Below, one piece after another: positions 1-31,996 of a DNA stretch of 32,715 nt; within the stretch, counting starts at the first letter, position 1, and each line of letters opens with the position of its first letter. The DNA is from a plasmid: the NCBI RefSeq assembly GCF_053078305.1, contig NZ_CP166878.1. The stretch is one strand, 5' to 3'. A model generated the notes under the pieces. The model had not been told where the DNA came from, did no database searches, and saw only the letters and a program-made list of their open reading frames with translations. Made by a program: the position numbers and the translations under genes.

Positions 1-1866
1 ATGCAAGCAAATGATGAGTTTCTTCGCTTGGTTTTTGAAAACATATGGCCATGGTGGACATATGCCTGGGTTTTAGTTTTTTCTTTGTTATGTGTGTTTA
101 CATTTTCGGGTCATGCAGAAAAAAGTGGTGATAAGAGTACTCTGCGTTTCATTATTGAAGCAGCCAGGAAGAAATTACTTGTTGCATGGATTTTATGTAC
201 TCTTTTGTTCTTTCTATTTGTGTACATAATAGCGTGGAAACACTTTGGGGAAGATTCACATAAAGCATCACTTTATATGGAGTTATTGTATGAGCGGATT
301 GGTGACAAATCTTTCTCATTTGGTGATTATTGTGGTATAGCATTTGTGCTACTTTTTCCCTATGCCTGTCAGATAATTAATCGCCGTCTTATAAGACCAA
401 AACTATCATCATGGCTTCGTCGTTTTCGTGTGTCTCAGACCTCGGATACTATGAGTGATATTCGTGTTGAGAAAGGTAAATATTCGCCTAAAAACTTCAA
501 TCCTTTAGATTATTATAAGGATGGTCATTTCTTTTTAGGATTAGATGAAAATGATAAAGCAATCTACGTTACAGATGACTATTTGTCTAAAGTAAATATT
601 AAAATTTTAGGCGCAACGCAAACGGGTAAAGGTGTTATTCAGGGGGTTATTGCAGACCAGGCAATATTGAAAAATTGGGGTTTGTGGTTCTGGGATCAGA
701 AACCAGATAAATTTATTTACTCGATTATGAAACAACGTTGTGAGTCAGAGGGGCGAGAAATATATGAAGTTGATTTGAATGGTGAAGGTATAGGTGATTA
801 TGCGCCATTTAAGAATGGTACAAAACGTGAAATTTTGGATAGGTTTTTTAATGCGTTTTCTCTTGAGACTGGCGGGACTGATGCAGACTATTACAAAAAT
901 AATGCACAGGAGGTTATGTACTATATATATACTTTTTGGGACCGTTCGTTAAACGATTTACAAAAATTGTTGTCTGGTAGTGATGATAGAATACCGGAGG
1001 AAAAACAGGAATGGATAGCTAAAAATGGAGCTAATATTCGAACGCAGCTTAATAAATGGTTAGAGCTTCCTTGTCTATCTCCCGCTGATGGTCAGGGATT
1101 AAATGTAACTGAACTGGTTAAGTCAGGTGCGGTTATTTATGTAAAAGGTAGCACAAAAGATAAGGTTGTCAGGGCTGTCTTAAAATCAATGTTGCGTGAG
1201 TGGTCTGCGGCTGTTATTCGTGAACAACCAAAAAATCATGTGTTGGGGATAATTGATGAGGCCCGTTTTGTTATCTCGTCAGAGGTTGCTGATAGTCTGG
1301 CAACTATATTATCCTCAAATGCAAGTTTGTCTATTGCATATCAAGAGAGAGATGACCTTTTAAATATACCGGATGAAAAACCGCAGATTGCTCAGTCAAT
1401 AAAAAAAGGGACGGAAACAAATACCAATTTGACACTTGTTTATCGTTGTAATGACGAGACGGCTGAATGGGTTGCCAAAAATTCTGGTACAACTGCGAAG
1501 AGTCTGACAAAACTTGAAGAAGTCGAAACTGACGGTTATGGCGCGGAAACATGGAAGGGACGACGAATGATTGGACAGGAAGAGGATTACTATATACCAG
1601 TAAATACGGTTCTTGCAGTTGAAGAACGAGTTGGTATTATGCAGACTATGTTTGAACTCAGTCGGGTTTTATTTACATGCTGGGTTCCTGTTCAACGTTT
1701 TTATACACTTCCGGCCCGCCCTCAAACGGAGCACGATAATGTTCAGGATTGTATAAAGAATGATGGTTCAATTTCTCCGAGTGATGAGGATTACTTTAAT
1801 CCTGACATGATTAGTGATGAAGAGCTAGCGATGATAAATAAAACAGTATCGTCAGACAGTAAATAA
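1..1866 (+). CDS. virD4: Type IV secretion coupling protein (VirD4/TraG-family ATPase)
   Basis: 621-aa ORF with Walker A-like GATQTGKG and Walker B-like hydrophobic-DE (LGIIDEARFV), N-terminal hydrophobic segments. ORF begins at window edge, so the true start may lie upstream. Confidence 0.7.
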   Translation: MQANDEFLRLVFENIWPWWTYAWVLVFSLLCVFTFSGHAEKSGDKSTLRFIIEAARKKLLVAWILCTLLFFLFVYIIAWKHFGEDSHKASLYMELLYERIGDKSFSFGDYCGIAFVLLFPYACQIINRRLIRPKLSSWLRRFRVSQTSDTMSDIRVEKGKYSPKNFNPLDYYKDGHFFLGLDENDKAIYVTDDYLSKVNIKILGATQTGKGVIQGVIADQAILKNWGLWFWDQKPDKFIYSIMKQRCESEGREIYEVDLNGEGIGDYAPFKNGTKREILDRFFNAFSLETGGTDADYYKNNAQEVMYYIYTFWDRSLNDLQKLLSGSDDRIPEEKQEWIAKNGANIRTQLNKWLELPCLSPADGQGLNVTELVKSGAVIYVKGSTKDKVVRAVLKSMLREWSAAVIREQPKNHVLGIIDEARFVISSEVADSLATILSSNASLSIAYQERDDLLNIPDEKPQIAQSIKKGTETNTNLTLVYRCNDETAEWVAKNSGTTAKSLTKLEEVETDGYGAETWKGRRMIGQEEDYYIPVNTVLAVEERVGIMQTMFELSRVLFTCWVPVQRFYTLPARPQTEHDNVQDCIKNDGSISPSDEDYFNPDMISDEELAMINKTVSSDSK

Positions 1867-1922: not shown

Positions 1923-2987
1923 ATGGATAAAAAGACAAAAACATATCCTTTTGGTGACATTGAGTTTTTTGACCAGTTAGAGGAACATGCATGGGACCAG
2001 ATTCATGATGGTATGCTACCAATTATGGATTTGTATCTTGATCCGACAGTAACCGATATATTTATAAACAGGTATGACAATATATATACATCTGTCAATG
2101 GCAAGTATGTAAAGACCGACAGTTCCTTTTCCAGTGAACGGGCACTTAAAGCCTGGATTGATCAAATCGCAACGGTGTTGAGGCAGCCATTTTCAACGTC
2201 AGGAAACTATAAATATGGTGATGTCATTGAGCCTGTACTTGATGCCCGATTTCCCGATGGTTCCCGGTTGATGTGTACAGACCCGGTGATTTCACCGCAG
2301 GGTTCTACGGTAAGTCTTCGTAAAGTACCTAAGCAAATACTGGAAGAAAAAGATTTTATAAATTCCGGTATGTTGACGAGAGATATTCTTGATTATCTCA
2401 TTAGTGTTATACAAAAACGGAAAAATTTTATTGTTGCTGGTAATACTGGTTCTGGCAAAACATCACTTTTACGCTTGCTCGCCAGGTATATTGATACGAT
2501 GGAGCGTGTTATCACCGCCGAAGACACTCAAGAACTTCATATACACAGGTATTTTCCGTTAGGGATTGCTCTGGAAGCTGCACATCGTAAAGATGTGAAT
2601 GCGGATCTTCCTTCTCTGGTTCACCTGACTATGCGTGGTAATCCCGATCGTGTATGGGTTGGGGAGGTAAGAACGGCAGAGGCTATAGCTGCTTATTACA
2701 TGGTTCTGGCAAGTGGAACTATAGGTAATGCTACAACTCTGCACTCCGTTACCCCTATGGGGGCAATACGCAAAATGACCTGGCTTATGTCAAGCTATCT
2801 CAGTATCGATTTTCAGATAGCTCAGGATTTAATTATGTCAGAGGTTGACGTGATTATTCAGTGCCGGAGAACATCAAAGCATGGAAGAAGAATTACAGAT
2901 ATCGTCGAAATACGTGAAGGGAAAATTGTTCCTATATTCAAGTTTGATGAAGAGCAAGAAGTACATGTCAGGTTTGACAAAAAATGA
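1923..2987 (+). CDS. virB11: VirB11-family secretion ATPase
   Basis: 354-aa ORF; Walker A GNTGSGKTS, downstream ITAEDTQEL and conserved His-box region typical of VirB11/TrbB traffic ATPases; ATG at 1923. Confidence 0.9.
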   Translation: MDKKTKTYPFGDIEFFDQLEEHAWDQIHDGMLPIMDLYLDPTVTDIFINRYDNIYTSVNGKYVKTDSSFSSERALKAWIDQIATVLRQPFSTSGNYKYGDVIEPVLDARFPDGSRLMCTDPVISPQGSTVSLRKVPKQILEEKDFINSGMLTRDILDYLISVIQKRKNFIVAGNTGSGKTSLLRLLARYIDTMERVITAEDTQELHIHRYFPLGIALEAAHRKDVNADLPSLVHLTMRGNPDRVWVGEVRTAEAIAAYYMVLASGTIGNATTLHSVTPMGAIRKMTWLMSSYLSIDFQIAQDLIMSEVDVIIQCRRTSKHGRRITDIVEIREGKIVPIFKFDEEQEVHVRFDKK

Positions 2988-3299: not shown

Positions 3300-3366
3300 C
3301 ACTTCTAGATCCGGGGTTTTGGGTATATGCTATGTTTATATGCATAATTTATGTGGGGGGCTTGTT

Positions 3367-3612
3367 ATGAGAACAAATGTGGCAGTAAAAAAACGTAGTA
3401 TAAACGTATACTTAAATGCAGGGTTACTTGAAGAAGCAAAAGATCTTGATCTGAATGTTTCTGCTATCTCTAACAAAGCTCTCGAAAAAGCGGTAAGGGA
3501 GCGTAAGCGTGAACGCTGGATAGAAGAAAACCGTGCTGGCATTGAGGCATTAAACCGTTTTGTAGAAGATACCGGGATTTTTTCAGATGATGAAAATTTT
3601 GGGGTAATTTAG
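3367..3612 (+). CDS. ccdA: CcdA-family antitoxin
   Basis: Recognisable similarity to F-plasmid CcdA (VNISxxxxxxxxEARRxRAERWxxEN...FADENRDW pattern: NVSAISNKALEKAVRERKRERWIEENRAGIEALNRFVEDTGIFSDDENFG); ATG 3367 preceded by G-rich RBS; stop overlaps ccdB start. Confidence 0.85.
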   Translation: MRTNVAVKKRSINVYLNAGLLEEAKDLDLNVSAISNKALEKAVRERKRERWIEENRAGIEALNRFVEDTGIFSDDENFGVI

Positions 3613-3929
3613 TGAAACAATTTTCTGTCTACAAGAACAAATCGCGAAATAAACAGGCGTACCCCTATTTTATTGATATACAGGCAGAGATGCTTGCACA
3701 CCTTAACACCCGGTTGGTGATGCCTTTAACGCCAAAAGATAATTCAAACTCGCAGGTAAAGACGTTAACGCCAGTAATAAACATCAACCAGGTAGATTAT
3801 GTGGTTCTGACTACTATGATAACGACAACGGATGCAAAAAATCTGAACTCTGATAATGTCGTTATGGATGCTTCATATTTACGAGATCAACTGGTTTCTG
3901 CAATTGACATGATGATTCTGGGTATTTAA
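3612..3929 (+). CDS. ccdB: CcdB-family gyrase-poison toxin
   Basis: GTG start overlapping the ccdA stop by 1 nt; protein begins MKQFSVYKNKSRNKQAYPYFIDIQ and ends MMILGI, matching the CcdB family pattern ([21 protein letters not shown] ... LMFWGI). Confidence 0.85.
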   Translation: MKQFSVYKNKSRNKQAYPYFIDIQAEMLAHLNTRLVMPLTPKDNSNSQVKTLTPVININQVDYVVLTTMITTTDAKNLNSDNVVMDASYLRDQLVSAIDMMILGI

Positions 3930-4233: not shown

Positions 4234-4560
4234 TTATGTGTCTGACATTTTTCCAATCATGATTTCTGTGAGATTTGTATCAGCAAAATCTCCTTTCCCC
4301 GATTCAGTGTCAAAGTCGCCTGGCGTGAACTTATGTACGTCTTGCCAGACTGCGAAGCAGGTAGGGCATGTTACAGGTAGTTCGCCCTCCGCTATCTTTT
4401 CACAACTTTCTACCAGTTCTTGTTTCTCGTTGTACCTGATGTTATAGCCGCTTGTGCAAAGCGTTTCATACCCGTGAGCGCCCGTCACTATATGTGTGGC
4501 GGTTCTTTCTGTGATTTTTCCATCAACTAATAACTGTTCATGCGTTGTGATCGTTTGCAT
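4234..4560 (-). CDS. Hypothetical Cys-rich protein (108 aa)
   Basis: ORF with CxxC-type cysteines (CTSGY...CEKIAEGELPVTCPTC); no family recognised; lies between repeat copy 2 and the virB3-like gene. Confidence 0.45.
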   Translation of the reverse strand: MQTITTHEQLLVDGKITERTATHIVTGAHGYETLCTSGYNIRYNEKQELVESCEKIAEGELPVTCPTCFAVWQDVHKFTPGDFDTESGKGDFADTNLTEIMIGKMSDT

Positions 4561-4704
4561 GTCTGTCTCTCATAATTGTTGGTTTATGTGATTGTTGGGG
4601 CGACCGTAAAAATATACGCCAGATGATGGGAGAGCATCTTATTTCGTATTGCTCAAAAAAACATATGACAAATATCACAAAAATGAAGTGCAGGTATTGA
4701 CATC

Positions 4705-4717
4705 GGGGGGGGGGGGG
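4705..4717. repeat. Homopolymeric G13 tract in divergent intergenic region
   Basis: 13 consecutive G read directly, 71 bp upstream of the virB3-like start. Confidence 0.9.
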
Positions 4718-4787
4718 TAACGTAAAGATTATAAATATAAATTTTACAAAACGTAAAAATATACTACGTCATTCGGTAAGAAATCAA

Positions 4788-5120
4788 ATGGCTGAAATAA
4801 AAGGAAAAATAACCAATCCCGCACTGGTTAATGCAAAAGTTTTTTACAACAGACGAACAAAGCTGGGGATACCTACAGAGGTCTTTTTGATCCTGATGTT
4901 CCTGAATGTTTTTGCTGTTGTGCTGTGTGTTATGTATTTCAGCACATTTTCCGTTATTTCGCTGATTTTATTTGTTCTGGTATCGGTTGTTCCTATGAAG
5001 TTCGTTTTTCATGGCGATCCCGATGCTCATAAAGCTTGGATTTATGGTTATTTGTCACCTTCCAGGCTGAACAATACCCACGCAGTGAAGCGTCGTATCA
5101 CATTTATAGACGCTATTTAG
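4788..5120 (+). CDS. virB3: VirB3-like small inner-membrane T4SS protein
   Basis: 110 aa, hydrophilic N-terminus then one long hydrophobic region (GIPTEVFLILMFLNVFAVVLCVMYF...); position immediately upstream of pilin and VirB4 genes. Confidence 0.55.
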   Translation: MAEIKGKITNPALVNAKVFYNRRTKLGIPTEVFLILMFLNVFAVVLCVMYFSTFSVISLILFVLVSVVPMKFVFHGDPDAHKAWIYGYLSPSRLNNTHAVKRRITFIDAI

Positions 5121-5149
5121 GGATTTAACCAGTAAAAGAGGTGTATACA

Positions 5150-5497
5150 ATGCTCAATCGCATTTCCAGAAAGATATCAACATTCCAGATAATGCTTTAC
5201 GTAGCATTAGTGACAGGAAGTGTCACACCGGCTATGGCTGCTGGTAATAGTACAGTTAAACTTCCTACGCCGGATGATAGTTTTTTACAGAAAATCGTTA
5301 ACTGGATGCAAAGTATTCTGGATCTGGTTGGTGGGGCTGGAGCTTTGTTCTTTGCGTTTGTCAGTGGGTTTGCTTGTATTGTGTTGTGGGGACTTGCACC
5401 GCAACAGAGCCAGGCTATCGGGAAACTGTTTCGTGCTGCTGTTGCAGCAATTGCAGCGTTTAACCTGGCGTTCTTTATTGCCTGGCTGCAAAAATGA
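5150..5497 (+). CDS. virB2: VirB2/TrbC-like pilin precursor
   Basis: Long signal peptide ending AMAAG, two hydrophobic helices (GGAGALFFAFVSGFACIVLWGL; AAVAAIAAFNLAFFIAWL); ATG 5150 with AGAGG RBS (ORF track extends to GTG 5141). Confidence 0.65.
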   Translation: MLNRISRKISTFQIMLYVALVTGSVTPAMAAGNSTVKLPTPDDSFLQKIVNWMQSILDLVGGAGALFFAFVSGFACIVLWGLAPQQSQAIGKLFRAAVAAIAAFNLAFFIAWLQK

Positions 5498-5508
5498 GGT
5501 GATCCACG

Positions 5509-8109
5509 ATGGGGCAGAGCTATAACGAACATCTGAATCTGGCAGGCATCGAACAACATTCCGGGCAGGTGTATACCTATACTGGAGGTGCTTTTGGTGC
5601 TATTGAACTGACAGGTGTTGATCCAACGGGTGTTACCCCTTCTCAGGGTAGCCGTATTTCTTTATTACTTCGTAATATCGTTCAGTTACTGCCCCTTTCT
5701 GTCACACTGACTCAGTATTATATCCATAATGACGGCGTTAAGATCCGGCTGACAGGGCGTGATAATCAACGCAGTCAGTTACTTTCTATGCGTCGCCAGG
5801 CATATCTTAATAAATGTCGTAATTTAAATGCCTCAAGAATTATATGGACGCTGGATGTTCACCCGGAAGAGAATATTAATCGCCTGGCATCTGCCGAGTT
5901 TTTAAAGAATCTTTTTAACAGCATGTTTGATGACACAGCCAGACGTAAAGTCAGGCTGGCACTGTCAAATCGCGAATCGTTTATCATTGAGCGTCAGGCA
6001 TTTGAAAAACAGTGCCTGTTGCTGAAAGAAACATTACGCGATCTGGACTTACGCCTTTCTTTTATTTCAGAAGATAACAGGATTCTTGATTCAGAAGGGA
6101 TCTGGCGATTACAGAAGTTCCTTGCAACATTTAATCACCATTGGCTGGCTCCACGCCGTAAGGTCACTGTACCCAATGATATGTGGGATTGTCTGGCGAT
6201 TGAAGGTGACGATATCGAGGCCATTACCTGGCGTGGCGTTGATATGTTGAAGATCCAGGGGGTACGGCCTGTTTATGTTCGCCTGGCCAGTGTGTTGAAA
6301 ATAGGCGATGAATCTGTACCGGAATGTGCCTGGGCGCTGACAAATGGCAGACCAGTTTTACAGCGGGGTAACTACGTTTACTTCATGCGGTTCACTCCCG
6401 CCAGTGCCTTTAAGAAGTCACTGATGATCAGCGGGAAAGAAAACGAACTTGTCAGGACTCAAATCAGTTTGAGCGATTTAATGACTGACAGTACGAGCAA
6501 AGATATTCTCGATGAAAAATTGCGCAGAAATTCACATCTGATGAAGATGCGCGAAGAACTGGAGAATATTTCATATTCAGATGAGCGCCTGGGGATCTGC
6601 CAGGCCGGGATTGCTGTATTTAATACAGATCCCGATAAATTACTTGAGACTTGTGCGGATATTAACCGTAGTGTCTCTCAGACCATGCAAGTTGTATGGG
6701 AGACGGTAGCACAACTGGATGCTTACAAGGTTATGCAACCAGCCTACTCACGCAATACATTTCGTGCATTACAGCTTAACGCATCTCAGATGGGGGCGGC
6801 ATCCTTGTTCTTTAAATCCCATCCAGGTATTCCTGAATGGGAGCTAAATGGACGCATGGAGGAAGCCTTCTATATTCTTGAATCAGATGATGGCGTGCCG
6901 TTTTTCTTTACGCCAAAAGTTAAAGAAAAGCTACTGCTTCTTGGTAATGGGGCGACCCGTGGCGGCAAGACTTTTATGAAAAACTGTATTGCCAGCCATT
7001 TTATTAAATTCGGTGGTCTGTATAACTGTCTGGATATCGATCCTGGCTCTATCCCAATGGCTAATTTCTTTGGGGATGATGGGGCAGCATTTACCCTTGA
7101 TAGCGATTTTCAGTGTGGTTTTAACATGTTCAGTATGGCGCAAAGCAAGGATGACAGGGTATTTCTTGCGCATCTTATAGAGCAGTTAAAAGCAATGGCA
7201 GCAGAAAATGACAGTGAGCAGGATAAATATTTAACGCCTGATGAACTTGAAAATATAACAGTGTGTGCGAGTGATCTTCTTGTACAAAAATTTTCGCCGA
7301 ATGAGGGGCGTTTAAGCTCAATCACGTTGTCAACGCTGGTTTCTAAGTGTGGTCAGAGCGTTAAACGCAAGTTAGCGCCATTTATTAGTAATGGTATTTA
7401 TGGACGTTTATTTGATAACAAAGAGGACGCGATTGGTGTTCTTGATAAGCCGGTAGCTGTTTACAACCTTTCAGGTGTGAAAGATAACCATAATCTTGCG
7501 CGGCTTGTGCACCGTGAAATCTTCTTTCGTGTCGTTCGTTTGTTTGAATCACCGGAATATCGCACGATACCAAAGTTTTTTGAAATAGATGAGGCACAGT
7601 ACACCCTGTCTGTACCACATGCCGCAGAGTTCGCTACACAGAAAGCCCGAACCTGGTTTAAGCATGGTGGGGGTATGGGATTCTGGACTCAGAACCCGGA
7701 GCACTATTCATCACTGGATGAGTGGACTACGTTACGTTCCTCGGCGTCGGTGTTTATCTTTATGCCGGATAATGAGGCAACAGTTAAAGCATTCCATGAT
7801 GCTTATGGCTTCGATGAAGAAGAAGTGAATATTATTCGCAGCCTTAAGGTAAAACAGCAGTCGTATATAAAGATCCCGGACATGCAGATTGCAAAAGTGG
7901 TGAATCTGTTTGTTGAGGCTGAACAGTATGCTGTTTGTACATCAACGTCTAATGAAGCAGCCCTGGCAGCGGAAATATGGAAACGTGAATCAGATCCCGA
8001 TGTTGCAGTGCGACAGATTGTAGAAGGTCTGATAACGAAGTGTAATAAGGACTTGATCCCAACGCCTACAGAGACTGAAAAGGATAAAACGGAGGGGTTT
8101 TTCTTATGA
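5509..8109 (+). CDS. virB4: VirB4-family T4SS ATPase
   Basis: 866-aa ORF, Walker A GNGATRGGKT, size and position typical of VirB4/TrbE; RBS GAGGTGA. Confidence 0.9.
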   Translation: MGQSYNEHLNLAGIEQHSGQVYTYTGGAFGAIELTGVDPTGVTPSQGSRISLLLRNIVQLLPLSVTLTQYYIHNDGVKIRLTGRDNQRSQLLSMRRQAYLNKCRNLNASRIIWTLDVHPEENINRLASAEFLKNLFNSMFDDTARRKVRLALSNRESFIIERQAFEKQCLLLKETLRDLDLRLSFISEDNRILDSEGIWRLQKFLATFNHHWLAPRRKVTVPNDMWDCLAIEGDDIEAITWRGVDMLKIQGVRPVYVRLASVLKIGDESVPECAWALTNGRPVLQRGNYVYFMRFTPASAFKKSLMISGKENELVRTQISLSDLMTDSTSKDILDEKLRRNSHLMKMREELENISYSDERLGICQAGIAVFNTDPDKLLETCADINRSVSQTMQVVWETVAQLDAYKVMQPAYSRNTFRALQLNASQMGAASLFFKSHPGIPEWELNGRMEEAFYILESDDGVPFFFTPKVKEKLLLLGNGATRGGKTFMKNCIASHFIKFGGLYNCLDIDPGSIPMANFFGDDGAAFTLDSDFQCGFNMFSMAQSKDDRVFLAHLIEQLKAMAAENDSEQDKYLTPDELENITVCASDLLVQKFSPNEGRLSSITLSTLVSKCGQSVKRKLAPFISNGIYGRLFDNKEDAIGVLDKPVAVYNLSGVKDNHNLARLVHREIFFRVVRLFESPEYRTIPKFFEIDEAQYTLSVPHAAEFATQKARTWFKHGGGMGFWTQNPEHYSSLDEWTTLRSSASVFIFMPDNEATVKAFHDAYGFDEEEVNIIRSLKVKQQSYIKIPDMQIAKVVNLFVEAEQYAVCTSTSNEAALAAEIWKRESDPDVAVRQIVEGLITKCNKDLIPTPTETEKDKTEGFFL

Positions 8110-8924
8110 GAAAACAACTTGCAGTAGTCTTGTTTTCTGTAATGACAGGATTGATTACAACACCTGCTATTTCTGGCGTTCCTGTTGCGGATGCTGCTCA
8201 GATTCTTGGTCAGGCCAGGGCTATGATGCAGGATATCAAAAACTATAAAGAATATATGGAACAGACAATTCTCAATAATAAAGAATTGCTGGAAGCATAT
8301 AAGCAATACAACCAGATGCTTGAGGATTATAAGCAAATTTTACGTGAGGCCGAAGGGCTGAAAGATAAACTTTCATCGATTGACTATAAGAATTTTATGG
8401 ATGAAATAGCCCTTATCTCTAACCAGTTCGATCCCGTTTATGGCGGGGGGCGTATGGTTAAAAATACGGGTAATGCGCCGTGGGATAAAGCCTATGAGCG
8501 TAATTTGTTGCTTAATGGCTATGGGCTTACAAACGAAGAATATGCCGAAATGCTGGCAGCGATACCATATACGAGTGATGACCGCGAACGTGCCCGGCAG
8601 ATGTTTGAATATAGGCAGCGCAGGGTTGTTGAAGGGATTTCAAAAGATGCCTTTGTTGGTGAATTGCAAATACAATTAAAAAAGCAAGGAAAAACTCTAG
8701 GGGAATTACAGGAAAGACGTTTAAGGTTAGGTGATAACGATACGACAGCCTCTATCCAGTTTTTAGCTGAACAAAATGAACAACTGTTACAACAAATTCA
8801 GAGTTTACAGTTACAGCAAGCAGAGGCGATGAAATATAGTGGTCGTCTTGAGGATCACTATTTTAACAAGCGAGCGCAACAGGAAGAATTAAAGGCACGT
8901 CAGTTACAGAGGGCATGGCAATGA
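8106..8924 (+). CDS. VirB5-like secreted helical protein (minor pilus subunit candidate)
   Basis: Start overlaps virB4 stop (ATGA); signal peptide; helical/coiled-coil-rich 272 aa; positional inference. Confidence 0.5.
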   Translation: MRKQLAVVLFSVMTGLITTPAISGVPVADAAQILGQARAMMQDIKNYKEYMEQTILNNKELLEAYKQYNQMLEDYKQILREAEGLKDKLSSIDYKNFMDEIALISNQFDPVYGGGRMVKNTGNAPWDKAYERNLLLNGYGLTNEEYAEMLAAIPYTSDDRERARQMFEYRQRRVVEGISKDAFVGELQIQLKKQGKTLGELQERRLRLGDNDTTASIQFLAEQNEQLLQQIQSLQLQQAEAMKYSGRLEDHYFNKRAQQEELKARQLQRAWQ

Positions 8925-9388
8925 AAAAATATCTGATTCTTTTCTTCATGATGTTTTCAGCCTCGGCAATGGCTAAGATTGGCTATGTTGATGAGCATCA
9001 AAAGGAAGTTGACCTAAAAATTGACGCTCTGATTTCTAAATATGAAAAAGAATGTGAAGGTAAACGCAATAGTAATATGTGTAAATCCCAGGCATGGGAT
9101 AAGGCTCATTTTGAATATGAAGATGAATTTAGAGGCGAAGATAAATATAATCATAAGCATTATGATGGCCTGACAAAAGATCAGGCAGTCGCGAAGTTAC
9201 ATGAACTTATTAAATTGCATAATATTGTTTCTAAAGATGAACGCAATCCTGAAAGTTGGCCTGGAAAATTAGACACACTAACTATTAATGGTGAGATTAA
9301 CTATATAGTTAGAAAACACTGGCCAGCATGGATTAATCCATGTGATAAGATTTGTGCGGAACTGTTACTTAGACAAATAGGTAAATGA
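8921..9388 (+). CDS. Secreted protein between virB5- and virB6-like genes (possible entry-exclusion protein)
   Basis: Signal peptide MKKYLILFFMMFSASAMA; the equivalent position holds eex in pKM101-type clusters; function is inferred only from position. Confidence 0.4.
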   Translation: MKKYLILFFMMFSASAMAKIGYVDEHQKEVDLKIDALISKYEKECEGKRNSNMCKSQAWDKAHFEYEDEFRGEDKYNHKHYDGLTKDQAVAKLHELIKLHNIVSKDERNPESWPGKLDTLTINGEINYIVRKHWPAWINPCDKICAELLLRQIGK

Positions 9389-9429
9389 TGTAGCGTTTAA
9401 CAGGCTATATCTTTAATTTGGGGGCTATT

Positions 9430-10419
9430 ATGCTTCGAGGATTCTTTTTGTCTTTAATTAACAGACTCTTATTTGTAGTCCTGTTTTTATCTGTCTCATT
9501 TTATGCCAGTGCAGAAACAGCTATGCGCACAAACTTTCAGAATGGCGTAAGTGAGATGGTTAATAAAATACTAAATAGCCCGGATAGTGATTTACGTGTC
9601 TGGACTATTGCCGCATCAACTTTCCTGGCTGCGGTAACGGCATTCGTCTATTTCTGGCGGTTCGTGGAAAATGGTGGGGCGTTAGTTGATTTATTCACGC
9701 TTGCAATCATGTTTATGTTATCAATGTCATTGCTTGCTTCTTACTCAATGGTTGTTGATACTATCACAGGCGCTTTTTATGCGATATCAAATACACTACA
9801 GAAACTGGCGTTAGGTAATATTAAGCCGAGTTTTCTGCAAAATTTTGTAGAGGGCGTGTTAACAAAGGCTATTTCAGCACCATCGGTTGATATTTTTGAT
9901 GGCATGAATATGGTTGGCATGGCGCTCTTGTGGGAAATATGTTCTGCTATTTTGTCTGTTGCTATATATCTTGCTGATGTTTGGATTGATGTTGGGACAG
10001 CAATAGCAAAAATTACAGGTGTTATGTTTATTCCTTTTTTGGTTGCGCCAGCAACAAGAGGAATTTTTGATGGATGGTTTAAATTCTATATTGGATGGGG
10101 GCTTGCAGCGGTTGTACTTAAAATAACATCTATTGTGGTAATGATAATGATCAGGGCATCAATTAACTCTGCGGGTAGTTTCCAGGGCGCTGGCGATGTT
10201 ATCGCGTCAGATGGTACTGTTAATGGCGTTCTTAATATAACAGCTAATAATATCAGCTTGTTACGTGATATTTGTGCATATTCTGTAATCGCTGCAATTA
10301 TGGTGTTCAGTTGTTTTATATTTGCGTACATGATTGGTTCTGGTGTCGGCTCTGCAAGTCAGGGTTTGAATAATATGGCAGTAAAACTAGCCAAGAAAGC
10401 GGCTAAAGCATTATTGTAA
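9430..10419 (+). CDS. virB6: VirB6-like polytopic inner-membrane protein
   Basis: About 330 aa with multiple hydrophobic helices; ATG 9430 after GGGGG RBS (ORF track starts at TTG 9418). Confidence 0.65.
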   Translation: MLRGFFLSLINRLLFVVLFLSVSFYASAETAMRTNFQNGVSEMVNKILNSPDSDLRVWTIAASTFLAAVTAFVYFWRFVENGGALVDLFTLAIMFMLSMSLLASYSMVVDTITGAFYAISNTLQKLALGNIKPSFLQNFVEGVLTKAISAPSVDIFDGMNMVGMALLWEICSAILSVAIYLADVWIDVGTAIAKITGVMFIPFLVAPATRGIFDGWFKFYIGWGLAAVVLKITSIVVMIMIRASINSAGSFQGAGDVIASDGTVNGVLNITANNISLLRDICAYSVIAAIMVFSCFIFAYMIGSGVGSASQGLNNMAVKLAKKAAKALL

Positions 10420-10428
10420 GGTGAACGT

Positions 10429-11148
10429 ATGCTGCTTGAAAAAAAAGAAGTCGAAAAAGTAAATCGCACAGCCTTTAAGGATCGTGTTGGTGAACTAAAA
10501 AAAGACAGAAATTTGTTTTTCTGGATTGCCTTGCTTCTTGCCGGGACGACGATATATCAGTCATATTCTGTTCAGGAGGCAATAGAGAAAAGCCAGAATA
10601 CTACAGAAGTAGTATGGGTGAAATTATTGCCTGATGGTTCACATAAAATATCACAATTTACGCCAGACAATGAGCAGCCTATATATACACCAACAGTGAA
10701 CTCATTGCTGTCAAAGTATATGCAGAAGCGCTATGGACAGTTAAAAGAGACTATAGAACGGGATTATGCAGAAGCGGCAGTATTTATGTCTCCTGTACTT
10801 ACAGGGGAGTTTGCCGATCCCAAAGGGTTTAATGTCGCTCAGAAAGTTGTGGATATTCAGGCCGATATGGCAGCAAAAAGGATTGATATAGAAATAAAAG
10901 ATATTGACCATTATGACGCGATAGAAGGTCAGTTTGATGGTGATGTCAAACCTGTAATTCGAACGCTTGTTACTTATCAGGAGATAACAAGGGATTATCA
11001 GGGTAAAGAAATTTCATCGGTTCAACAAATGAGGCGTCTTCAATGGACGTTGTTACAACGTAACGAACTTAGTAAACAATCGCTGGACTGGCTTAACATC
11101 AATCCGCTGGGAATCCAGATTATTGATGATAAATCCGTACAACAGTAA
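10429..11148 (+). CDS. virB8: VirB8-like bitopic protein
   Basis: 239 aa, single N-terminal TM (LFFWIALLLAGTTIY), periplasmic domain; position after the virB6-like gene. Confidence 0.65.
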   Translation: MLLEKKEVEKVNRTAFKDRVGELKKDRNLFFWIALLLAGTTIYQSYSVQEAIEKSQNTTEVVWVKLLPDGSHKISQFTPDNEQPIYTPTVNSLLSKYMQKRYGQLKETIERDYAEAAVFMSPVLTGEFADPKGFNVAQKVVDIQADMAAKRIDIEIKDIDHYDAIEGQFDGDVKPVIRTLVTYQEITRDYQGKEISSVQQMRRLQWTLLQRNELSKQSLDWLNINPLGIQIIDDKSVQQ

Positions 11149-11160
11149 AGGAACTTAATC

Positions 11161-11994
11161 ATGTTAGCGAAAAGAACTCTCTTATTTTCTGGAGTCCTGG
11201 CTGTTGTCATGACTACGTTCAGTGCAACAGCACAGCAATGTAGAGTGGTTAACTGGCGGCCTGGAACAATAGTTAAAGTGCAGTCCGCTTTATATCTGGG
11301 AACTCGTATAGAACTGCCGGAAGGCTCAATGTTATTAACGAAAGAACCCTTTTCTTCTAATGCGCTATGGGCCAGCACGGGAGCCGCAAATCAGGTCATG
11401 ATTCAGCCTACCAGCGAAGAGCCGGAAGGGCTGAAAACGATGGTAACAGTATTTATGACTAACGGGCAGACGCTGGATATTGAGGCTGTTCGGGTATCTC
11501 AGAACCAGAATCAACAGTGTGTTCAGATCCGTGGTGCAGGTATGCGTTCCGCAGACAGAAGTGCATTAAACACGGCTTACAGTATGGGAGCATCCGGGGC
11601 TGATGTGGCTCGTTTACAGAATGAAGTGAATACATTGCGGAGTAACAGAGAAAGCGAAGTCAAAAACGCAGTTCTTGAAGCTCTTCGTCGATACCGATAT
11701 TTCATTTATACCCGTTATAACTGGACGACAGGTAAAGGTTTTAGCGGAAAGAATATGATCTCTGATGTTTATGATGACGGGCGTTTTACTTATATCCGTA
11801 TCGCAAAACCGAATCGTGGATTACTTGCGGTACATGCAGATGTCGGAGGAAAACCAGCGGTTATTCCTACCAAGTACGACGATGCATATGCCATTTATCA
11901 TATGTCAGGGATATATCCCAAATTTACCCTTACCCTGGATGGCGTAAAGCTGGAAGTCAGCCGTGCGGATAATGCGACTGATGGGGAGAGCTAA
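11161..11994 (+). CDS. virB9: VirB9-like outer-membrane channel subunit
   Basis: Signal peptide, 277 aa, C-terminal beta-rich region; order B8-B9-B10. Confidence 0.7.
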   Translation: MLAKRTLLFSGVLAVVMTTFSATAQQCRVVNWRPGTIVKVQSALYLGTRIELPEGSMLLTKEPFSSNALWASTGAANQVMIQPTSEEPEGLKTMVTVFMTNGQTLDIEAVRVSQNQNQQCVQIRGAGMRSADRSALNTAYSMGASGADVARLQNEVNTLRSNRESEVKNAVLEALRRYRYFIYTRYNWTTGKGFSGKNMISDVYDDGRFTYIRIAKPNRGLLAVHADVGGKPAVIPTKYDDAYAIYHMSGIYPKFTLTLDGVKLEVSRADNATDGES

Positions 11995-11996
11995 TT

Positions 11997-13403
11997 ATGG
12001 AAGAACGTCAGGAGAAAGTAGAAGAAAAACCAGCTACTTACCGTAAAAAAATACAGTATTACGCTTTTGGTACTTTTGGTGTGATCCTGGTAATTCTTTT
12101 TATCAATATGGTGATAAGTATTGCCTCAAGGAACGAGGAAGAACCAAAGGAAAATGCGAAACAGGAAACTGCCAGCACTGCGCCAAATACAACGGAAAAG
12201 TTTAATGCGTTACTGAAAAACAGTGGTGCACGTCCTTCTGCCTCCGTTAATCAGGCTAATACGGTTGGAAATAAGGATAGTGCCAGTAATGGAAATCCGA
12301 ATAGTGAAACAGATAAAAAACCTGTTCACCCTTACAGCCGGGAAAAAGAGGCGTCTCAGGAGAGGGGGGCGAGAGCAAGTGATGCGGGGTCACCTGATGA
12401 AATCAGGGCACGCTTTAAGGCTGATGAGATTAACCGAGCACTGCGTGCCAGGTCAGATAAAACAAATTTTGACAGCACTAAAAATACGGTTGCGGGTAGT
12501 GGTAATGCATATGCCCCGGCAGCATCGTTTACCGGAAACCGGACTAATGCGCAGCGTATCAGCGATATAAACGCAGAGCAGAATGGATTGCAGGAACGTA
12601 TCCAAATGATGGAATCAAAAGTTCGTGCTGATGAAGCCGCTTTGCCTGGACGACTGGAAGAAGCCCGGATACGTGGGGAACAGCAATTTGCAGAAGCCCG
12701 ACAGGGTGGAGCAGGAAGTAACGCGACATCGGTAACTAAGGGGAGTACCCAGAGCGTACCGTCCGGTGTTGTGGGATATACAGCCAGTAATCCTTATGGG
12801 GCAAGTGTTGATGGAATGATGAAGTTGCCAGTAGGTACGGTCCTGAATGCCATTACCACATTTACGGCTATTTCTGATTATTCCGGCGGCTCAATGAAGG
12901 CCATGCTTACGCATGATATCTATGATGCGACGCATAGCTACATTCTTGCGCCTAAAGGAAGTGAGTTCGTTATCAGGGTCGTTAAAGCCTCCCAGGTAAA
13001 CGAAATCCTTCAAAGCCGTATTGGATTCCAGGTTACATGGCTTGTATTGCCTGATGGTAACAGGGTCGATTTTAAAACCTCGTCGTCTCTTGACCGAATG
13101 GGGACTCCGGCGGTTGAAGGCGATGAGGTGGACAGGCATTTGCTCGCTCAGTTTCTTGGCGTAGCGGCCTATGCCCTTGTGGGGACGAAAACCAGCTACG
13201 AAGGCTCAGGTGATAGTAACGAGAGTTTTGCCGGGAATTTTGGCGAAGGCGCTCGTACTCAGGCAGGAAATATCGCTCAAAAATACCTCCAGGTTGTGCC
13301 TACAACAACGTTACATGCGGGAGCACCGATCAGGGTCTTTACCGAAGATGAGATATACATGAAGCCGTGGAGAAATATTTATGAAACGGATTATACGGGC
13401 TGA
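11997..13403 (+). CDS. virB10: VirB10-like protein
   Basis: 468 aa, N-terminal TM, Pro/Glu/Ala-rich linker, C-terminal beta-barrel-like domain. Confidence 0.75.
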   Translation: MEERQEKVEEKPATYRKKIQYYAFGTFGVILVILFINMVISIASRNEEEPKENAKQETASTAPNTTEKFNALLKNSGARPSASVNQANTVGNKDSASNGNPNSETDKKPVHPYSREKEASQERGARASDAGSPDEIRARFKADEINRALRARSDKTNFDSTKNTVAGSGNAYAPAASFTGNRTNAQRISDINAEQNGLQERIQMMESKVRADEAALPGRLEEARIRGEQQFAEARQGGAGSNATSVTKGSTQSVPSGVVGYTASNPYGASVDGMMKLPVGTVLNAITTFTAISDYSGGSMKAMLTHDIYDATHSYILAPKGSEFVIRVVKASQVNEILQSRIGFQVTWLVLPDGNRVDFKTSSSLDRMGTPAVEGDEVDRHLLAQFLGVAAYALVGTKTSYEGSGDSNESFAGNFGEGARTQAGNIAQKYLQVVPTTTLHAGAPIRVFTEDEIYMKPWRNIYETDYTG

Positions 13404-13875
13404 AATATTGTTTTTTGCTGCATTCTTTGCATTTTCCTGTCAGGCAGCAAGAAGTCCTTTCCAGGTAGACAGGATGCGAGAAAGTGCGCCTGTTCAGATA
13501 TCACAGCAGGATGTGCATGTGCAGGGAAACTTTCAGGAGTTACAACCACTGGACAGGAACCAGAAAGATCCTCGCTGGCAGTATATCGATCCGTTGAGTG
13601 TTTACATGCGTACAGTTTGGCCCGATAACATCAGGACTATCAGAGCAGCGGTGAACTATCTCCTTGAACCAACAGGATATCGCCTGGTAACGAGTCATCC
13701 GGCACCGCGTGAGGCTTCCCTTCTTGTTGATAAGCCATTACCGCCAATTGCCAGAATGCAACGCACAATGCCCGTAGTTGATGCTCTTCAGTTGCTGGTT
13801 GGGCTTGATAATTATGTTGTTATTGATCGTGCCCACAGGCTGGTTTCATTTCAGAAAAATGGGGGCGGTGTATGA
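13381..13875 (+). CDS. Hypothetical exported protein within T4SS cluster
   Basis: Signal peptide MKRIIRAEILFFAAFFAFSCQA; 164 aa; overlaps virB10 end by 23 nt; no family recognised. Confidence 0.45.
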   Translation: MKRIIRAEILFFAAFFAFSCQAARSPFQVDRMRESAPVQISQQDVHVQGNFQELQPLDRNQKDPRWQYIDPLSVYMRTVWPDNIRTIRAAVNYLLEPTGYRLVTSHPAPREASLLVDKPLPPIARMQRTMPVVDALQLLVGLDNYVVIDRAHRLVSFQKNGGGV

Positions 13876-14096
13876 AGGAATGGTGTATGCGGATTATTTT
13901 TGTTGCTTTCCTGGCTATTGCAACGGTGATTCTTTGCTTATTTATGACGGGGTGTGCACAACGTTATGAGAGTGGTCATGATCAGCTTTTCGAACTGTCA
14001 GAACGCCATATCATTTACCGGGATCTGACTGTTCCGGCATCGATGAGCAATTTGCCGGAGAAGCAGCAGATAAGCGTACCGGGGATTGAGCCGTGA
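13872..14096 (+). CDS. Small lipoprotein (VirB7-like candidate)
   Basis: Lipobox LFMTGC after hydrophobic leader; 74 aa; start could instead be ATG 13887. Confidence 0.45.
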   Translation: MKEWCMRIIFVAFLAIATVILCLFMTGCAQRYESGHDQLFELSERHIIYRDLTVPASMSNLPEKQQISVPGIEP

Positions 14097-14770
14097 ACGT
14101 CCGGTTAATTTTCATGCTGGCGTTTCTGATATCTGGCGGTATCAGCGCATCAACGGATGAAGAAATTCTACTGGCGTCGATAACCGCGCCAGGAGTTACC
14201 AGCTTTACCGATGAATCACCTTCTTCGGAATGGATTACAGCGATGCAGGGACGTTGGGGGAGTACAACTGATATGAAGGATATGCGTAGTTTGCGCGAGA
14301 TAAGAGAAGCGGTGATTGCTGAAATTAATGCCGTATCAGAGCCGGTGGTGGAGAAAACAGGGCCAGAAAACAAAGAATCGACCACAGGAATAAAAATATC
14401 TGAAAAAATACAGGCGATAATCAATAAATACGCAGAAAAATATCAAATTAGTGAAACTTTGTTGAAAGCGTTAATTAAAACGGAGTCTGGATTTAATCCA
14501 AACGCTGTCAGCAGAAAAGGTGCAAAGGGACTGATGCAGTTAATGCCTGTACATACCAAAAGGCATAATGCTGATCCCTTTGATGTTGAAACCAATGTGA
14601 AAATTGGTACAGGGCATCTTTCATATCTTCTCGATAAATACGGGGATTTACGGCTTGCTCTGGCTGCATATAACGCTGGGGAAGGTGCTGTTGATAAATA
14701 TGGCGGTATCCCCCCTTATAAGGAAACACAACAGTATGTAAATAAGATCATGGCAATGTTAGGAGGTTAA
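14093..14770 (+). CDS. virB1: Lytic transglycosylase (VirB1-like, SLT domain)
   Basis: SLT catalytic motif region ALIKTESGFNPNAVSRKGAKGLMQLMP and AYNAGEGAV; GTG start. Confidence 0.8.
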   Translation: MNVRLIFMLAFLISGGISASTDEEILLASITAPGVTSFTDESPSSEWITAMQGRWGSTTDMKDMRSLREIREAVIAEINAVSEPVVEKTGPENKESTTGIKISEKIQAIINKYAEKYQISETLLKALIKTESGFNPNAVSRKGAKGLMQLMPVHTKRHNADPFDVETNVKIGTGHLSYLLDKYGDLRLALAAYNAGEGAVDKYGGIPPYKETQQYVNKIMAMLGG

Positions 14771-14772
14771 AT

Positions 14773-15132
14773 ATGACAAAAATAAAGATACTGATATTTG
14801 CAGCTTTTGTCTCATTTGGAACCGTGCATAGCGCCAGCGCGGAAAATGGAAGTGATGCTCTGTCACTGACAGGAGAATTTCTTGAGCAACCTGTTAACAG
14901 TAGTGATCCATGTACTGTTTTTCTCTGTATGGCTGGAATGCTTAAGGGGGAATCGCCTGGTGAATGTAGTGGGGCAAAGAAAAAATTTTTCAGCATTATC
15001 AAAAGGAAGCATGGCAGTTTTCATCCAGGAAGAACATTTAATGCCCGGAAAGCGTTTCTTGGTGATTGTCCGTCAGCACCTGGAGATATTGTAGGCAAGA
15101 TACTTGATAAATACGGAAAATTACGCTGGTAA
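14773..15132 (+). CDS. Hypothetical Cys-rich exported protein
   Basis: Strong AGGAGG RBS, signal peptide ending HSASA; 119 aa; unknown function. Confidence 0.5.
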   Translation: MTKIKILIFAAFVSFGTVHSASAENGSDALSLTGEFLEQPVNSSDPCTVFLCMAGMLKGESPGECSGAKKKFFSIIKRKHGSFHPGRTFNARKAFLGDCPSAPGDIVGKILDKYGKLRW

Positions 15133-15665: not shown

Positions 15666-15818
15666 CTACGGGGATGATAATACCCATGAGGTTGATACTT
15701 GGCAGAGTCAGCTTGTGGGCATTATCAGGGGACTATAAAAGCCCATTTAAATTGTATTTAAATCATCCGGTAACGGCAAGAAAAATAATGTGTCATTCAG
15801 GCATAAGTGCAGGGCCAT

Positions 15819-16787
15819 ATGATTAGTCCGGCAATTGATTATTTTGCGGCAAACTTGCCATACCGACCTTATCACGCGAATGAATTGCTCTATGGGCTTC
15901 GTATCGATAAGGCAGCTAAAGCAGTGCTGGCGCGTTATATACAGCATAATCCACCTCATGCAATGTACTGGCTTGTTTTTGACGTTGACAGGCCAGTTGC
16001 GGCGATTGACTGGAATGATCTTAATGCGCCCACACCTAATTTTACGGTCAAAAATCCGGTTAATGGTCATGCACACCTGTTTTATGGGTTAAAAACGGCA
16101 GTTCGTGTTGCCAAAGACGGTAGCATTAAGGCGATCGAGTTTGCTGCTGCGGTAGAGCGAGGATTACGTGACAAACTTAAATCAGATATCGGCTATGCAG
16201 GGCTGATCTGTAAAAATCCTCTCCATACATGCTGGCAGGTTGTTGAATGGCGTGGAGAACTTTATGAGTTAGCTGAACTGGCTGATTATGTTGATTTGTA
16301 CGCGTCAACAGCGGCTAACGATGAACAGGCATTCGATATCGACTTTAGTTATGGGCTTGGGCGAAATTGTTGGCTCTTCAATCTGACCCGTATCTGGTCA
16401 TATACAGCAATCCGGCAGGGCTGGCCTGATTTCCCGCAATGGAAAGAAGCGGTGATTCAGCGTGTCGAAATGTATAACGTGCAGTTAAGCGTGCCTTTGT
16501 CTCACAAAGAATGTGTATGCATTGGCTCCAGCATCGCCAAATGGACGCATAGACGCTTCACTGAAGCTGGATTTGAGCAATATGTAGCTGATACCCATAC
16601 ATCAGAAATTCAGGCTCGTAGAGGGCGTAAGAATCGCTCAGAAGTGCAGGCTGCTAAGGGGCGTAAAGGTGGGAAAATATCTAAAAGAGGGATTGTTGAG
16701 GATTCTGCGCGGAGTTTGAAACCGTGGGTAGAGTTAGGGATCAGTCGGGCAACCTATTATCGACGTAGGGCAAATGAGACCAAATAA
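15819..16787 (+). CDS. ColE2-type plasmid replication initiator (primase-type Rep, Replicase family)
   Basis: N-terminal region YRPYHANELLYGLRIDKAAKAVLARYIQHNPPHAMYWLVFDVDR is characteristic of ColE2-like Rep proteins as I recall them; basic HTH-like C-terminus; origin-like sequence overlaps the stop. Confidence 0.65.
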   Translation: MISPAIDYFAANLPYRPYHANELLYGLRIDKAAKAVLARYIQHNPPHAMYWLVFDVDRPVAAIDWNDLNAPTPNFTVKNPVNGHAHLFYGLKTAVRVAKDGSIKAIEFAAAVERGLRDKLKSDIGYAGLICKNPLHTCWQVVEWRGELYELAELADYVDLYASTAANDEQAFDIDFSYGLGRNCWLFNLTRIWSYTAIRQGWPDFPQWKEAVIQRVEMYNVQLSVPLSHKECVCIGSSIAKWTHRRFTEAGFEQYVADTHTSEIQARRGRKNRSEVQAAKGRKGGKISKRGIVEDSARSLKPWVELGISRATYYRRRANETK

Positions 16788-17743: not shown

Positions 17744-17800
17744 ATGCATTTTTCAATACAAGACTACTGCCCGGCAATAAGTGCGGGCGGTGGTGGCTGA
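17744..17800 (+). CDS. Leader peptide overlapping repA start (translational coupling candidate)
   Basis: 18-codon ORF MHFSIQDYCPAISAGGGG whose stop lies 17 nt inside repA, the arrangement seen for tap/repY-type leader peptides. Confidence 0.45.
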   Translation: MHFSIQDYCPAISAGGGG

Positions 17801-18506
17801 AAAGAACAATTCCTTAATCCCCCGCATATCGCCGTCAGGGGTGGCCAAACAAAGTCCATGCTATAACGTTGTGTCGCGTAAGCGACGCCGTTTCCTCAAT
17901 CGCTGGATTAAATCGCTGGCGACGGTCGCTGGGCGTGTCAAAATCAAAAACGAACTCCGCCGCCGTATCCGGCATAACCGATATTGGGTTAATGAGGCTA
18001 ACAAGTTTGGCATAGAGGCACTTTGCGAACTGATGTTAGCTATCCTGGATGATCTCGATTTACGCTCCTGGGAAACCAGGCATAACCTCGAAACACTGGC
18101 AGAACGTGCCGGACTGGTGACACGCAGTGACGCGGGGCGTAAATCTATTTCCCGTGCCAGTAGGGGATGTGATCGCCTGGTCTGGTTGAATGCGATCATT
18201 ACAGATAAAGCGCCGTTTAACCCCTATGATGCACGGTGTGCCTGTAAACACATTGAAGTAACCGAAGACTTCTTTGCCATACTCGGCATTCCGTTAAAAC
18301 TGGTTTATCGGGAACGTGCCAGGCTGTTAAAGGCAGATCCTAATGAAATGATTTACTCCGGGGATGCCAGACTGATAGCTATCAGAGTCCAGAACTGGAC
18401 ACGGAAAGCGGCAGCCGGATTAGCCCGGATGAAAGCGAAACGCGACGCAGCTCGACAACGCAAAAAAGAATATTACGCTCACCCACCTACCCCTATTCCG
18501 GTCTGA
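17781..18506 (+). CDS. repA: IncFII-family replication initiator RepA
   Basis: Segment LETLAERAGLVTRSDAGRKSISRASRGCDRLVWLNAIIT aligns with the RepA1 core of R100-type proteins (SITTLAIECGLATESAAGKLSITRATRALTFLSELGLIT); GTG start right after an in-frame stop. Confidence 0.75.
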   Translation: MRAVVAEKNNSLIPRISPSGVAKQSPCYNVVSRKRRRFLNRWIKSLATVAGRVKIKNELRRRIRHNRYWVNEANKFGIEALCELMLAILDDLDLRSWETRHNLETLAERAGLVTRSDAGRKSISRASRGCDRLVWLNAIITDKAPFNPYDARCACKHIEVTEDFFAILGIPLKLVYRERARLLKADPNEMIYSGDARLIAIRVQNWTRKAAAGLARMKAKRDAARQRKKEYYAHPPTPIPV

Positions 18507-31885: not shown

Positions 31886-31996
31886 CAGTATAATATTTAA
31901 CCTGTAAGCGCAGCGCAAGGAATCTCTTTATAAGGTATTCCCATATGTTGATTTCTTTTATGTAGCGGTTACTACATAGCTTTTATGAGGATTTCG

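Follow-up and report, generated by a model that had tools for sequence, protein, structure and literature searches.

Putative VirB3 and VirB2-type pilin genes in swapped order within a divergent VirB/Trb-like secretion system of Escherichia coli plasmids

Two small genes precede virB4

We analysed a 32,715-nt stretch of plasmid DNA (contig NZ_CP166878.1), hereafter called the window. Positions 4788-5497 very probably encode VirB3 and VirB2 of a complete, divergent VirB/Trb-like conjugative type IV secretion system (T4SS), which belongs to the lineage of pKPC_UVA01 and the IncP-11 plasmid RP1-1 and is carried by an E. coli plasmid of ~30 kb. The genes follow a permuted B3-B2-B4 order, and virB11 lies upstream of them. 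On the + strand, two neighbouring ORFs are present at 4788-5120 and 5141-5497, and both the ORF coordinates and the hydropathy profiles bore out the initial annotation, according to which a gene for a 110-aa transmembrane protein comes first and a gene for a signal-peptide pilin second. The first gene (4788-5120) starts with ATG and encodes a 110-aa putative VirB3-family inner-membrane protein with a predicted two-helix hairpin. The second frame opens at a GTG at position 5141 (118 aa); the ATG at 5150 (115 aa) is the likelier true start, because the sequence AAAGAGG lies 8 nt 5′ of it and PGAP picks the same codon in near-identical plasmids. The putative TrbC/VirB2-type pilin gene thus spans 5150-5497 and encodes a 115-aa precursor in which two hydrophobic helices follow a signal peptide.

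The genes are tightly packed. The gap between the VirB3-like and pilin genes is 29 nt, virB4 starts at 5509, 11 nt after the pilin ORF, and the pilin gene is the only one in the 389 nt that separate the VirB3-like gene from virB4. Across 12 loci, the B3-B2 distance ranged from a 14-nt overlap to a 44-nt gap, and the B2-B4 distance from a 1-nt overlap to a 13-nt gap. The B3, B2 and B4 genes are probably co-transcribed.

Region 4500-8200 of the window is at least 99% identical to ten E. coli plasmids of ~28-35 kb deposited in PLSDB, pLAU-OXA4 and pEc631_3 among them. We read eight near-identical E. coli plasmids, whose sources were humans, a sheep, a mollusc and river water and which came from five countries (Lebanon, Norway, Korea, China and Switzerland); each of the eight has intact B3, pilin and VirB4 genes. 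Both small genes are labelled as hypothetical proteins in these near-identical plasmids. Judging from the conservation of the proteins and of their order across plasmids of Enterobacterales, Pseudomonas, Vibrio and Acetobacteraceae, both small ORFs are real genes.

The 227 bp upstream of the VirB3-like gene contain a perfect TTGACA (4697-4702) and, 2 nt further on, a 13-G homopolymer (4705-4717). Among the eight near-identical plasmids this tract consists of either 12 or 13 G. It could switch the expression of the T4SS operon by a slipped-strand mechanism; alternatively, the difference in length could be a homopolymer sequencing error. A strict sigma-70 scan found no + strand promoter at the TTGACA and G tract (4697-4735).

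Assignment of the first gene to the VirB3 family

Hydropathy analysis of the 110-aa protein revealed a single unbroken hydrophobic stretch of ~50 residues (28-76), which we read as a two-helix hairpin, and the AF2 model placed helices at residues 30-50 and 53-73. Motifs G27-x-P29 and D77-P-D-A-H are conserved. When searched alone against the Pfam VirB3 family (PF05101), the protein gave an E-value of 0.0018 and 19 bits, below the gathering score of 23.9, and a word-based homologue search returned a handful of relatives, all of them enterobacterial. We took VirB3-like orthologues from plasmids located via their VirB4, namely pKPC_CAV1392, RP1-1, two Vibrio plasmids, a P. syringae plasmid, the captured plasmid Drgb7 and Gluconacetobacter pGDIPal5I, the set comprising 12 clade proteins. 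The orthologues could be aligned over their full length and have conserved G-x-P and D-P-x-A...W motifs. Nine of the 12 clade members matched Pfam VirB3 (best E = 2e-5), and none matched pilin models.

A profile built from the 12 clade sequences was run against 1.84 billion representative proteins and yielded 130 matches, all of 72-141 aa. Pfam VirB3 was matched by 80 of the 127 proteins that were scanned (best E = 1.1e-9), any other family by at most two. Profile-profile comparison with hhalign aligned the clade with five canonical VirB3 proteins (R388 TrwM, R46, two from Sphingobium and one from Granulicella) with a probability of 78% and an E-value of 1.7e-5 over 66 columns, and found nothing when the same clade profile was compared with six canonical VirB2 proteins. 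In the opposite direction, an HMM of canonical VirB3 was searched against the 333 window ORFs of at least 40 aa, and ORF 4788-5120 was the sole significant match (E = 9e-4). PGAP names the pGDIPal5I orthologue as 'VirB3 family', and the depositors of RP1-1 named theirs tivB3. Sequence comparison thus supports the identification of ORF 4788-5120 as a divergent VirB3-family inner-membrane protein.

PGAP probably places the start of the VirB3-like gene of pKPC_CAV1392 (8290-8607 of L004; 91 aa) too far 3′; the tblastn alignment with the window protein begins 42 nt upstream of it.

Assignment of the second gene to the TrbC/VirB2-type pilins

Hydropathy analysis of the 115-aa protein showed a Sec-type signal peptide, a leader of residues ~1-31 ending in AMA directly before AG, followed by hydrophobic helices at ~56-84 and ~92-114 that are separated by the short polar loop APQQSQ. 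AF2 modelled a helical hairpin (helices 45-82 and 88-114) with a mean pLDDT of 70. A leader followed by two helices is the layout expected of a TrbC/VirB2 pilin (PF04956/PF18895). The family of this protein is narrow and nearly all of its members are unannotated, and the protein alone gave non-significant values against T4SS_pilin (E = 0.22) and TraA (E = 0.068). At the family level, Pfam TrbC was matched by 15 of the 41 members (best E = 6.9e-6) and T4SS_pilin by two of them. A search of the 41 members brought up no further family, other than an unrelated phage family that was matched once and marginally (E = 0.048).

Additional evidence came from metagenomic contigs that were reached through the genomic context of more distant matches to the VirB3 profile. 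Contigs L023, L024 and L026/L027 carry a VirB3-like gene, then a gene with a precomputed PF04956 TrbC annotation, and then VirB4. The pilin-family profile matched the TrbC-annotated orthologues of these contigs with E-values of 1e-21, 3e-18 and 1e-14. The same profile gave no match to VirB3 proteins, and when run across the window it found no second pilin-like ORF. We conclude that family-level similarity and gene context support ORF 5150-5497 as a divergent TrbC/VirB2-type pilin.

Could the 115-aa secreted protein be some other small envelope protein, such as one for exclusion or an accessory function, with the true pilin encoded elsewhere or absent, or with the two assignments reversed or wrong? 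We consider this very unlikely. The protein has no significant family match of its own; the HMM built from six canonical VirB2 sequences failed to detect it and had as its top match in the window, at a non-significant E-value of 0.044, ORF 20432-20920; and fold searches were uninformative, the structure searches with the pilin returning generic helical matches only. Yet 15 of its 41 homologues match TrbC and none matches another envelope family, its family profile is strongly homologous to the orthologues annotated with PF04956, and the protein lacks a lipobox and has the size, leader and two-helix topology of a pilin. The role of an exclusion protein is, moreover, already filled by the TrbK homologue at 8915-9388. 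As for ORF 20432-20920, it was rejected as a pilin candidate, being a 162-aa multi-pass membrane protein without the pilin layout.

Other comparisons were less informative. Alignment of the pilin family with the six canonical VirB2 proteins by hhalign was weak (probability of 11%, 20 columns), and hhalign against the single sequences of TrwL and TrwM was too weak for use, except for A5 versus TrwM (E = 0.0015). Sequence searches of PDB chains with both proteins and with their family profiles gave no meaningful match, and a PHROGs scan returned nothing.

The VirB3 and pilin assignments are both transitive, because neither window protein alone reaches a curated cut-off; the profile searches that the initial annotation had proposed as a check were thus sub-threshold for the window proteins themselves and positive for their relatives, which match VirB3 and TrbC. 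Taking the Pfam and hhalign results jointly, the identities that it had given to the two genes appear to hold and not to be reversed.

B3-B2-B4 is the standard layout of the lineage

The canonical MPF_T systems, R388 (Trw), R46/pKM101 (Tra) and VirB of A. tumefaciens, comprise the same subunits as the window lineage (a B1-like SLT protein, B2-B6, B8-B11 and a coupling protein, T4CP). VirB3 motifs of canonical MPF_T systems align with those of the window lineage, although overall sequence similarity is very low. The order B2-B3-B4 was found in all five canonical systems that we examined (R388, R46, two Sphingobium plasmids and Granulicella pACIX905, where the gene counted as B2 is annotated merely as hypothetical), in line with the premise of the initial annotation that most VirB clusters are arranged in this way. 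R388 and R46 have virB11 after virB10. In contrast to the canonical B2-B3-B4 ... B10-B11, the window reads virB11 ... B3-B2-B4-B5/TrbJ-TrbK-B6-B8-B9-B10. The window lineage also differs from canonical MPF_T by its extra PilL-like and TrbM genes and by a T4CP that is missed by the Pfam T4CP models.

When relatives were inspected, every one that we read had B3-B2-B4. These relatives comprised seven distinct plasmid types (L002-L008: pKPC_UVA01, RP1-1, two Vibrio plasmids, the P. syringae plasmid, Drgb7 and pGDIPal5I) and five metagenomic contigs (L020, L022, L023, L024 and L026), and virB11 was located upstream of B3-B2-B4 wherever their upstream sequence was long enough. A tblastn search with VirB4 recovered 154 PLSDB plasmids; about 150 of these encode a VirB4 of the lineage, with at least 30% identity over nearly the full length. 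Compared with typed clusters, therefore, the synteny of the window departs from all five canonical systems and agrees with all the relatives read. B3-B2-B4 is the conserved standard layout of the whole T4SS lineage and not an oddity of the window, so that the architecture, which the initial annotation had called atypical, is atypical with respect to the textbook systems (Ti, R388, pKM101/R46) and the rule within its own lineage. Our literature searches found no statement on a B3-before-B2 order, nor on the tivB nomenclature in this lineage.

The clade has inherited the swapped order as a feature of its synteny, and we see no sign that it alters function or mechanism; at most, it affects translational coupling. 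VirB3-VirB4 fusions occur in some other systems, and the B3-B2-B4 order implies that they cannot form here by simple read-through. As a synteny marker, the permutation is useful for recognising the clade; taken alone, it gives no hint of a new mechanism.

The remaining T4SS genes and the closest known systems

Downstream of the two small genes, a full set of T4SS genes is encoded on the + strand. The 866-aa VirB4 ATPase (5509-8109) matched TIGR00929 with E = 2.3e-36 and 125 bits, against a cut-off of 643, and is 54% identical to VirB4 of pKPC_UVA01. It is followed by a VirB5/TrbJ-like gene (8106-8924), whose product shows 42% identity to TrbJ of pKPC_UVA01 and weak matches to the Pfam T4SS and TrbJ families, and by a TrbK-like entry-exclusion gene (8915-9388; 31% identity to TrbK of pKPC_UVA01, E = 6e-13). 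The virB6/trbL, virB8, virB9 and virB10 genes occupy 9418-13403 (Pfam TrbL 6.7e-4, VirB8 3.7e-4, CagX 1.2e-10 and TrbI 2.6e-22), in a block that is collinear with pKPC_UVA01 at 38-61% identity. Region 13381-15132, also collinear with pKPC_UVA01, encodes a PilL-like protein (TIGR03748, 6.5e-12), a 74-aa putative lipoprotein, an SLT transglycosylase that is VirB1-like (Pfam SLT, 5.6e-31) and TrbM (2.1e-8), as assigned by TIGR03748, Pfam and synteny. The TIGR03748 model was built from ICEs of the PFGI-1 class.

The TrbK-like protein (157 aa) has an N-terminal signal-like leader, and its gene sits between the VirB5/TrbJ-like and VirB6/TrbL-like genes. The PilL-like and 74-aa putative lipoprotein genes, which lie after virB10 (13381-14096), are kept across the lineage. 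The latter product, with an LFMTGC lipobox motif, is possibly a VirB7-like protein or an analogue of VirB7.

According to established knowledge of VirB systems, the pilin precursor would be inserted into the inner membrane through Sec and its signal peptide would be removed after the AMA motif, the mature pilin then being stored in the inner membrane before its polymerisation into a conjugative pilus. By the same analogy, the two-helix VirB3 would bind the N-terminal part of the VirB4 ATPase and stabilise VirB4 in the inner-membrane complex.

The closest characterised system is that of pKPC_UVA01, a blaKPC plasmid of Klebsiella, Enterobacter and Citrobacter (Kamruzzaman et al. 2022, PMC8923210). 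This plasmid transfers itself by conjugation at about 1e-4 per donor and cannot do so without trbJ (VirB5-like) or trbL (VirB6-like), and TrbK was shown experimentally to be its entry-exclusion protein; its B2 and B3 genes were left unnamed (PMC8923210). Its genes follow the order of the window: B3, pilin, VirB4, TrbJ, TrbK, TrbL, B8, B9, B10, PilL-like, small lipoprotein, SLT, TrbM and SSB. In a tblastn comparison of all window T4SS ORFs with pKPC_CAV1392, a 43,621-bp blaKPC plasmid of the pKPC_UVA01 type, protein identity was 31-62% and collinearity extended from B3 through SSB. Both plasmids have virB11 upstream and homologous T4CPs (46% identity) with the same GKG P-loop. They differ in that pKPC_UVA01 carries a MobC-family (MOBC) relaxase directly 5′ of virB11 and a divergently oriented T4CP gene; the window has a + strand T4CP gene immediately 5′ of virB11, ccdAB before B3 and an unrelated 234-aa ORF in place of a recognisable relaxase.

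The IncP-11 plasmid RP1-1 of P. aeruginosa (LC700336.1) also shares the order of the window, with tivB11 ... tivB3, a 111-aa ORF, tivB4, B6, B9 and B10. The 111-aa ORF between tivB3 and tivB4 is unnamed in the record and matches Pfam TrbC with E = 0.002. RP1-1 is more distant, with a VirB4 that is 36% identical to that of the window and a T4CP N-terminus that is 34% identical, and it differs in its host and in the presence of a MobC-family relaxase.

The findings matter chiefly for annotation. Nearly every record of the lineage, that of the clinically important blaKPC plasmid pKPC_UVA01 included, gives 'hypothetical protein' for the two genes that precede virB4, and MOB-suite and similar tools frequently classify the plasmids as non-mobilizable or no more than mobilizable. 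Naming these genes as VirB3 and then VirB2 pilin would complete the parts list of the experimentally conjugative pKPC_UVA01 system, and the pilin so identified would be a likely target of pilus-specific phages or inhibitors.

Genes upstream of the B3-B2-B4 block

The initial annotation had also placed virD4 and virB11 upstream of the block. For virB11 this proved correct: the gene at 1923-2987 (+ strand) encodes an ATPase of the VirB11/TrbB family (Pfam T2SSE 3.5e-25, TIGR02782 TrbB 5.9e-37, TIGR02788 VirB11 5.2e-36). The 'virD4' label of 1-1866 (+ strand) is acceptable in the sense of a divergent T4CP, an assignment that rests on homology. The predicted protein (621 aa) has N-terminal transmembrane segments and a P-loop, GATQTGKG. 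No Pfam T4CP model matched it, and its match to TIGR03743 SXT_TraD was weak (8e-7, 27.8 bits against a cut-off of 366). It is 46% identical to a 661-aa ORF of pKPC_UVA01, 34% identical at its N-terminus to 'cpl' of RP1-1 (E = 4e-69) and 29% identical (E = 8e-74) to the pGDIPal5I protein that PGAP names 'TraM recognition domain-containing protein'. The location of the T4CP gene on the + strand directly 5′ of virB11 is peculiar to the E. coli plasmids, whereas the relatives that we read carry it divergently.

Walker A motifs normally have Ser or Thr at the position that is Gly in the P-loop of the coupling protein (GATQTGKG, residues 204-211). This GKG P-loop is common to pKPC_UVA01, RP1-1, pGDIPal5I and a metagenomic relative; TrwB and R46 TraJ have GKS and GKT.

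The interval between virB11 and B3 contains ccdAB (3319-3929; Pfam 2e-24 and 6e-27) and a - strand ORF at 4234-4560 that encodes a Cys-rich protein of 108 aa without a family assignment. The ccdA/ccdB toxin-antitoxin pair is absent from the equivalent position in pKPC_UVA01, RP1-1, pGDIPal5I and Drgb7. Most relatives carry a conserved, mutually homologous gene of 81-92 aa that is divergent from the B3-B2-B4 operon (- strand; 7415-7672 in L002, 1916-2161 in L006, 5698-5943 in L007, 3614-3877 in L022 and 3591-3869 in L023) and that may be a regulator. ORF 4234-4560 was considered as a counterpart of this gene and rejected, since it is unrelated to the family found in RP1-1, the P. syringae plasmid, Drgb7, L022 and L023.

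Relaxase slot and conjugative status

Family searches recognised no relaxase anywhere in the window. The relaxases of RP1-1 and pKPC_UVA01 match the MobC model NF041423 (2.7e-18 and 1e-15), and tblastn with these two MobC relaxases detected no homologue in the window. An ORF of 234 aa is present at 31985-32689; it matches no Pfam, NCBIfam or PDB entry, and its homologue in pGDIPal5I (29% identity, E = 2e-24) is the ORF immediately 5′ of virB11. In RP1-1, pKPC_UVA01 and Drgb7 the same slot is occupied by a MobC-family relaxase. The 234-aa ORF was rejected as kin of the MobC relaxases of RP1-1 and pKPC_UVA01, to which it is unrelated.

The T4SS cluster of the E. coli plasmid might be regarded as a decaying remnant, whose layout (T4CP flipped, ccdAB inserted, no relaxase) arose by rearrangement and degradation. 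Such a history would fit the lack of a relaxase family match in the window, the MOB-suite typing of all ten matching E. coli records as non-mobilizable, and the T4CP orientation and ccdAB insertion that set the window apart from its relatives. We consider it unlikely, however: the T4SS ORFs that we compared with pKPC_UVA01 are all intact and in the same order, B3, pilin and VirB4 remain intact in the eight E. coli plasmids from the sources and countries listed above, and pGDIPal5I has a conserved counterpart of the 234-aa ORF that occupies the relaxase slot. Functional relatives share the B3-B2-B4 order, which is therefore not a product of decay. A complete conjugative T4SS is thus the reading that we prefer.

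Since no relaxase is recognisable in the window, the 234-aa ORF may encode an unrecognised relaxase or an accessory protein. A further proposal, which we put forward tentatively and hold to be rather doubtful, is that the systems described here form a distinct, under-annotated VirB-like sub-lineage, within which the ~30-kb E. coli plasmids and pGDIPal5I would use an unrecognised relaxase, the protein of 234-264 aa in the relaxase slot, in place of the MobC-type enzyme of their relatives. The marks of this sub-lineage would be the B3-B2 swap, the upstream virB11, the deviant GxxxxGKG P-loop and a pilin family left as 'hypothetical'. If the unrecognised relaxase were real, plasmids typed as 'non-mobilizable' would be self-transmissible.

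Just upstream of the 234-aa ORF, at 31707-31757, lie two short inverted repeats, a possible oriT. The window also contains two replication-protein genes, at 15807-16787 and 17781-18506, one being of the Replicase/PriCT type (Pfam 3.8e-43) and the other IncFII RepA-like (7e-7).
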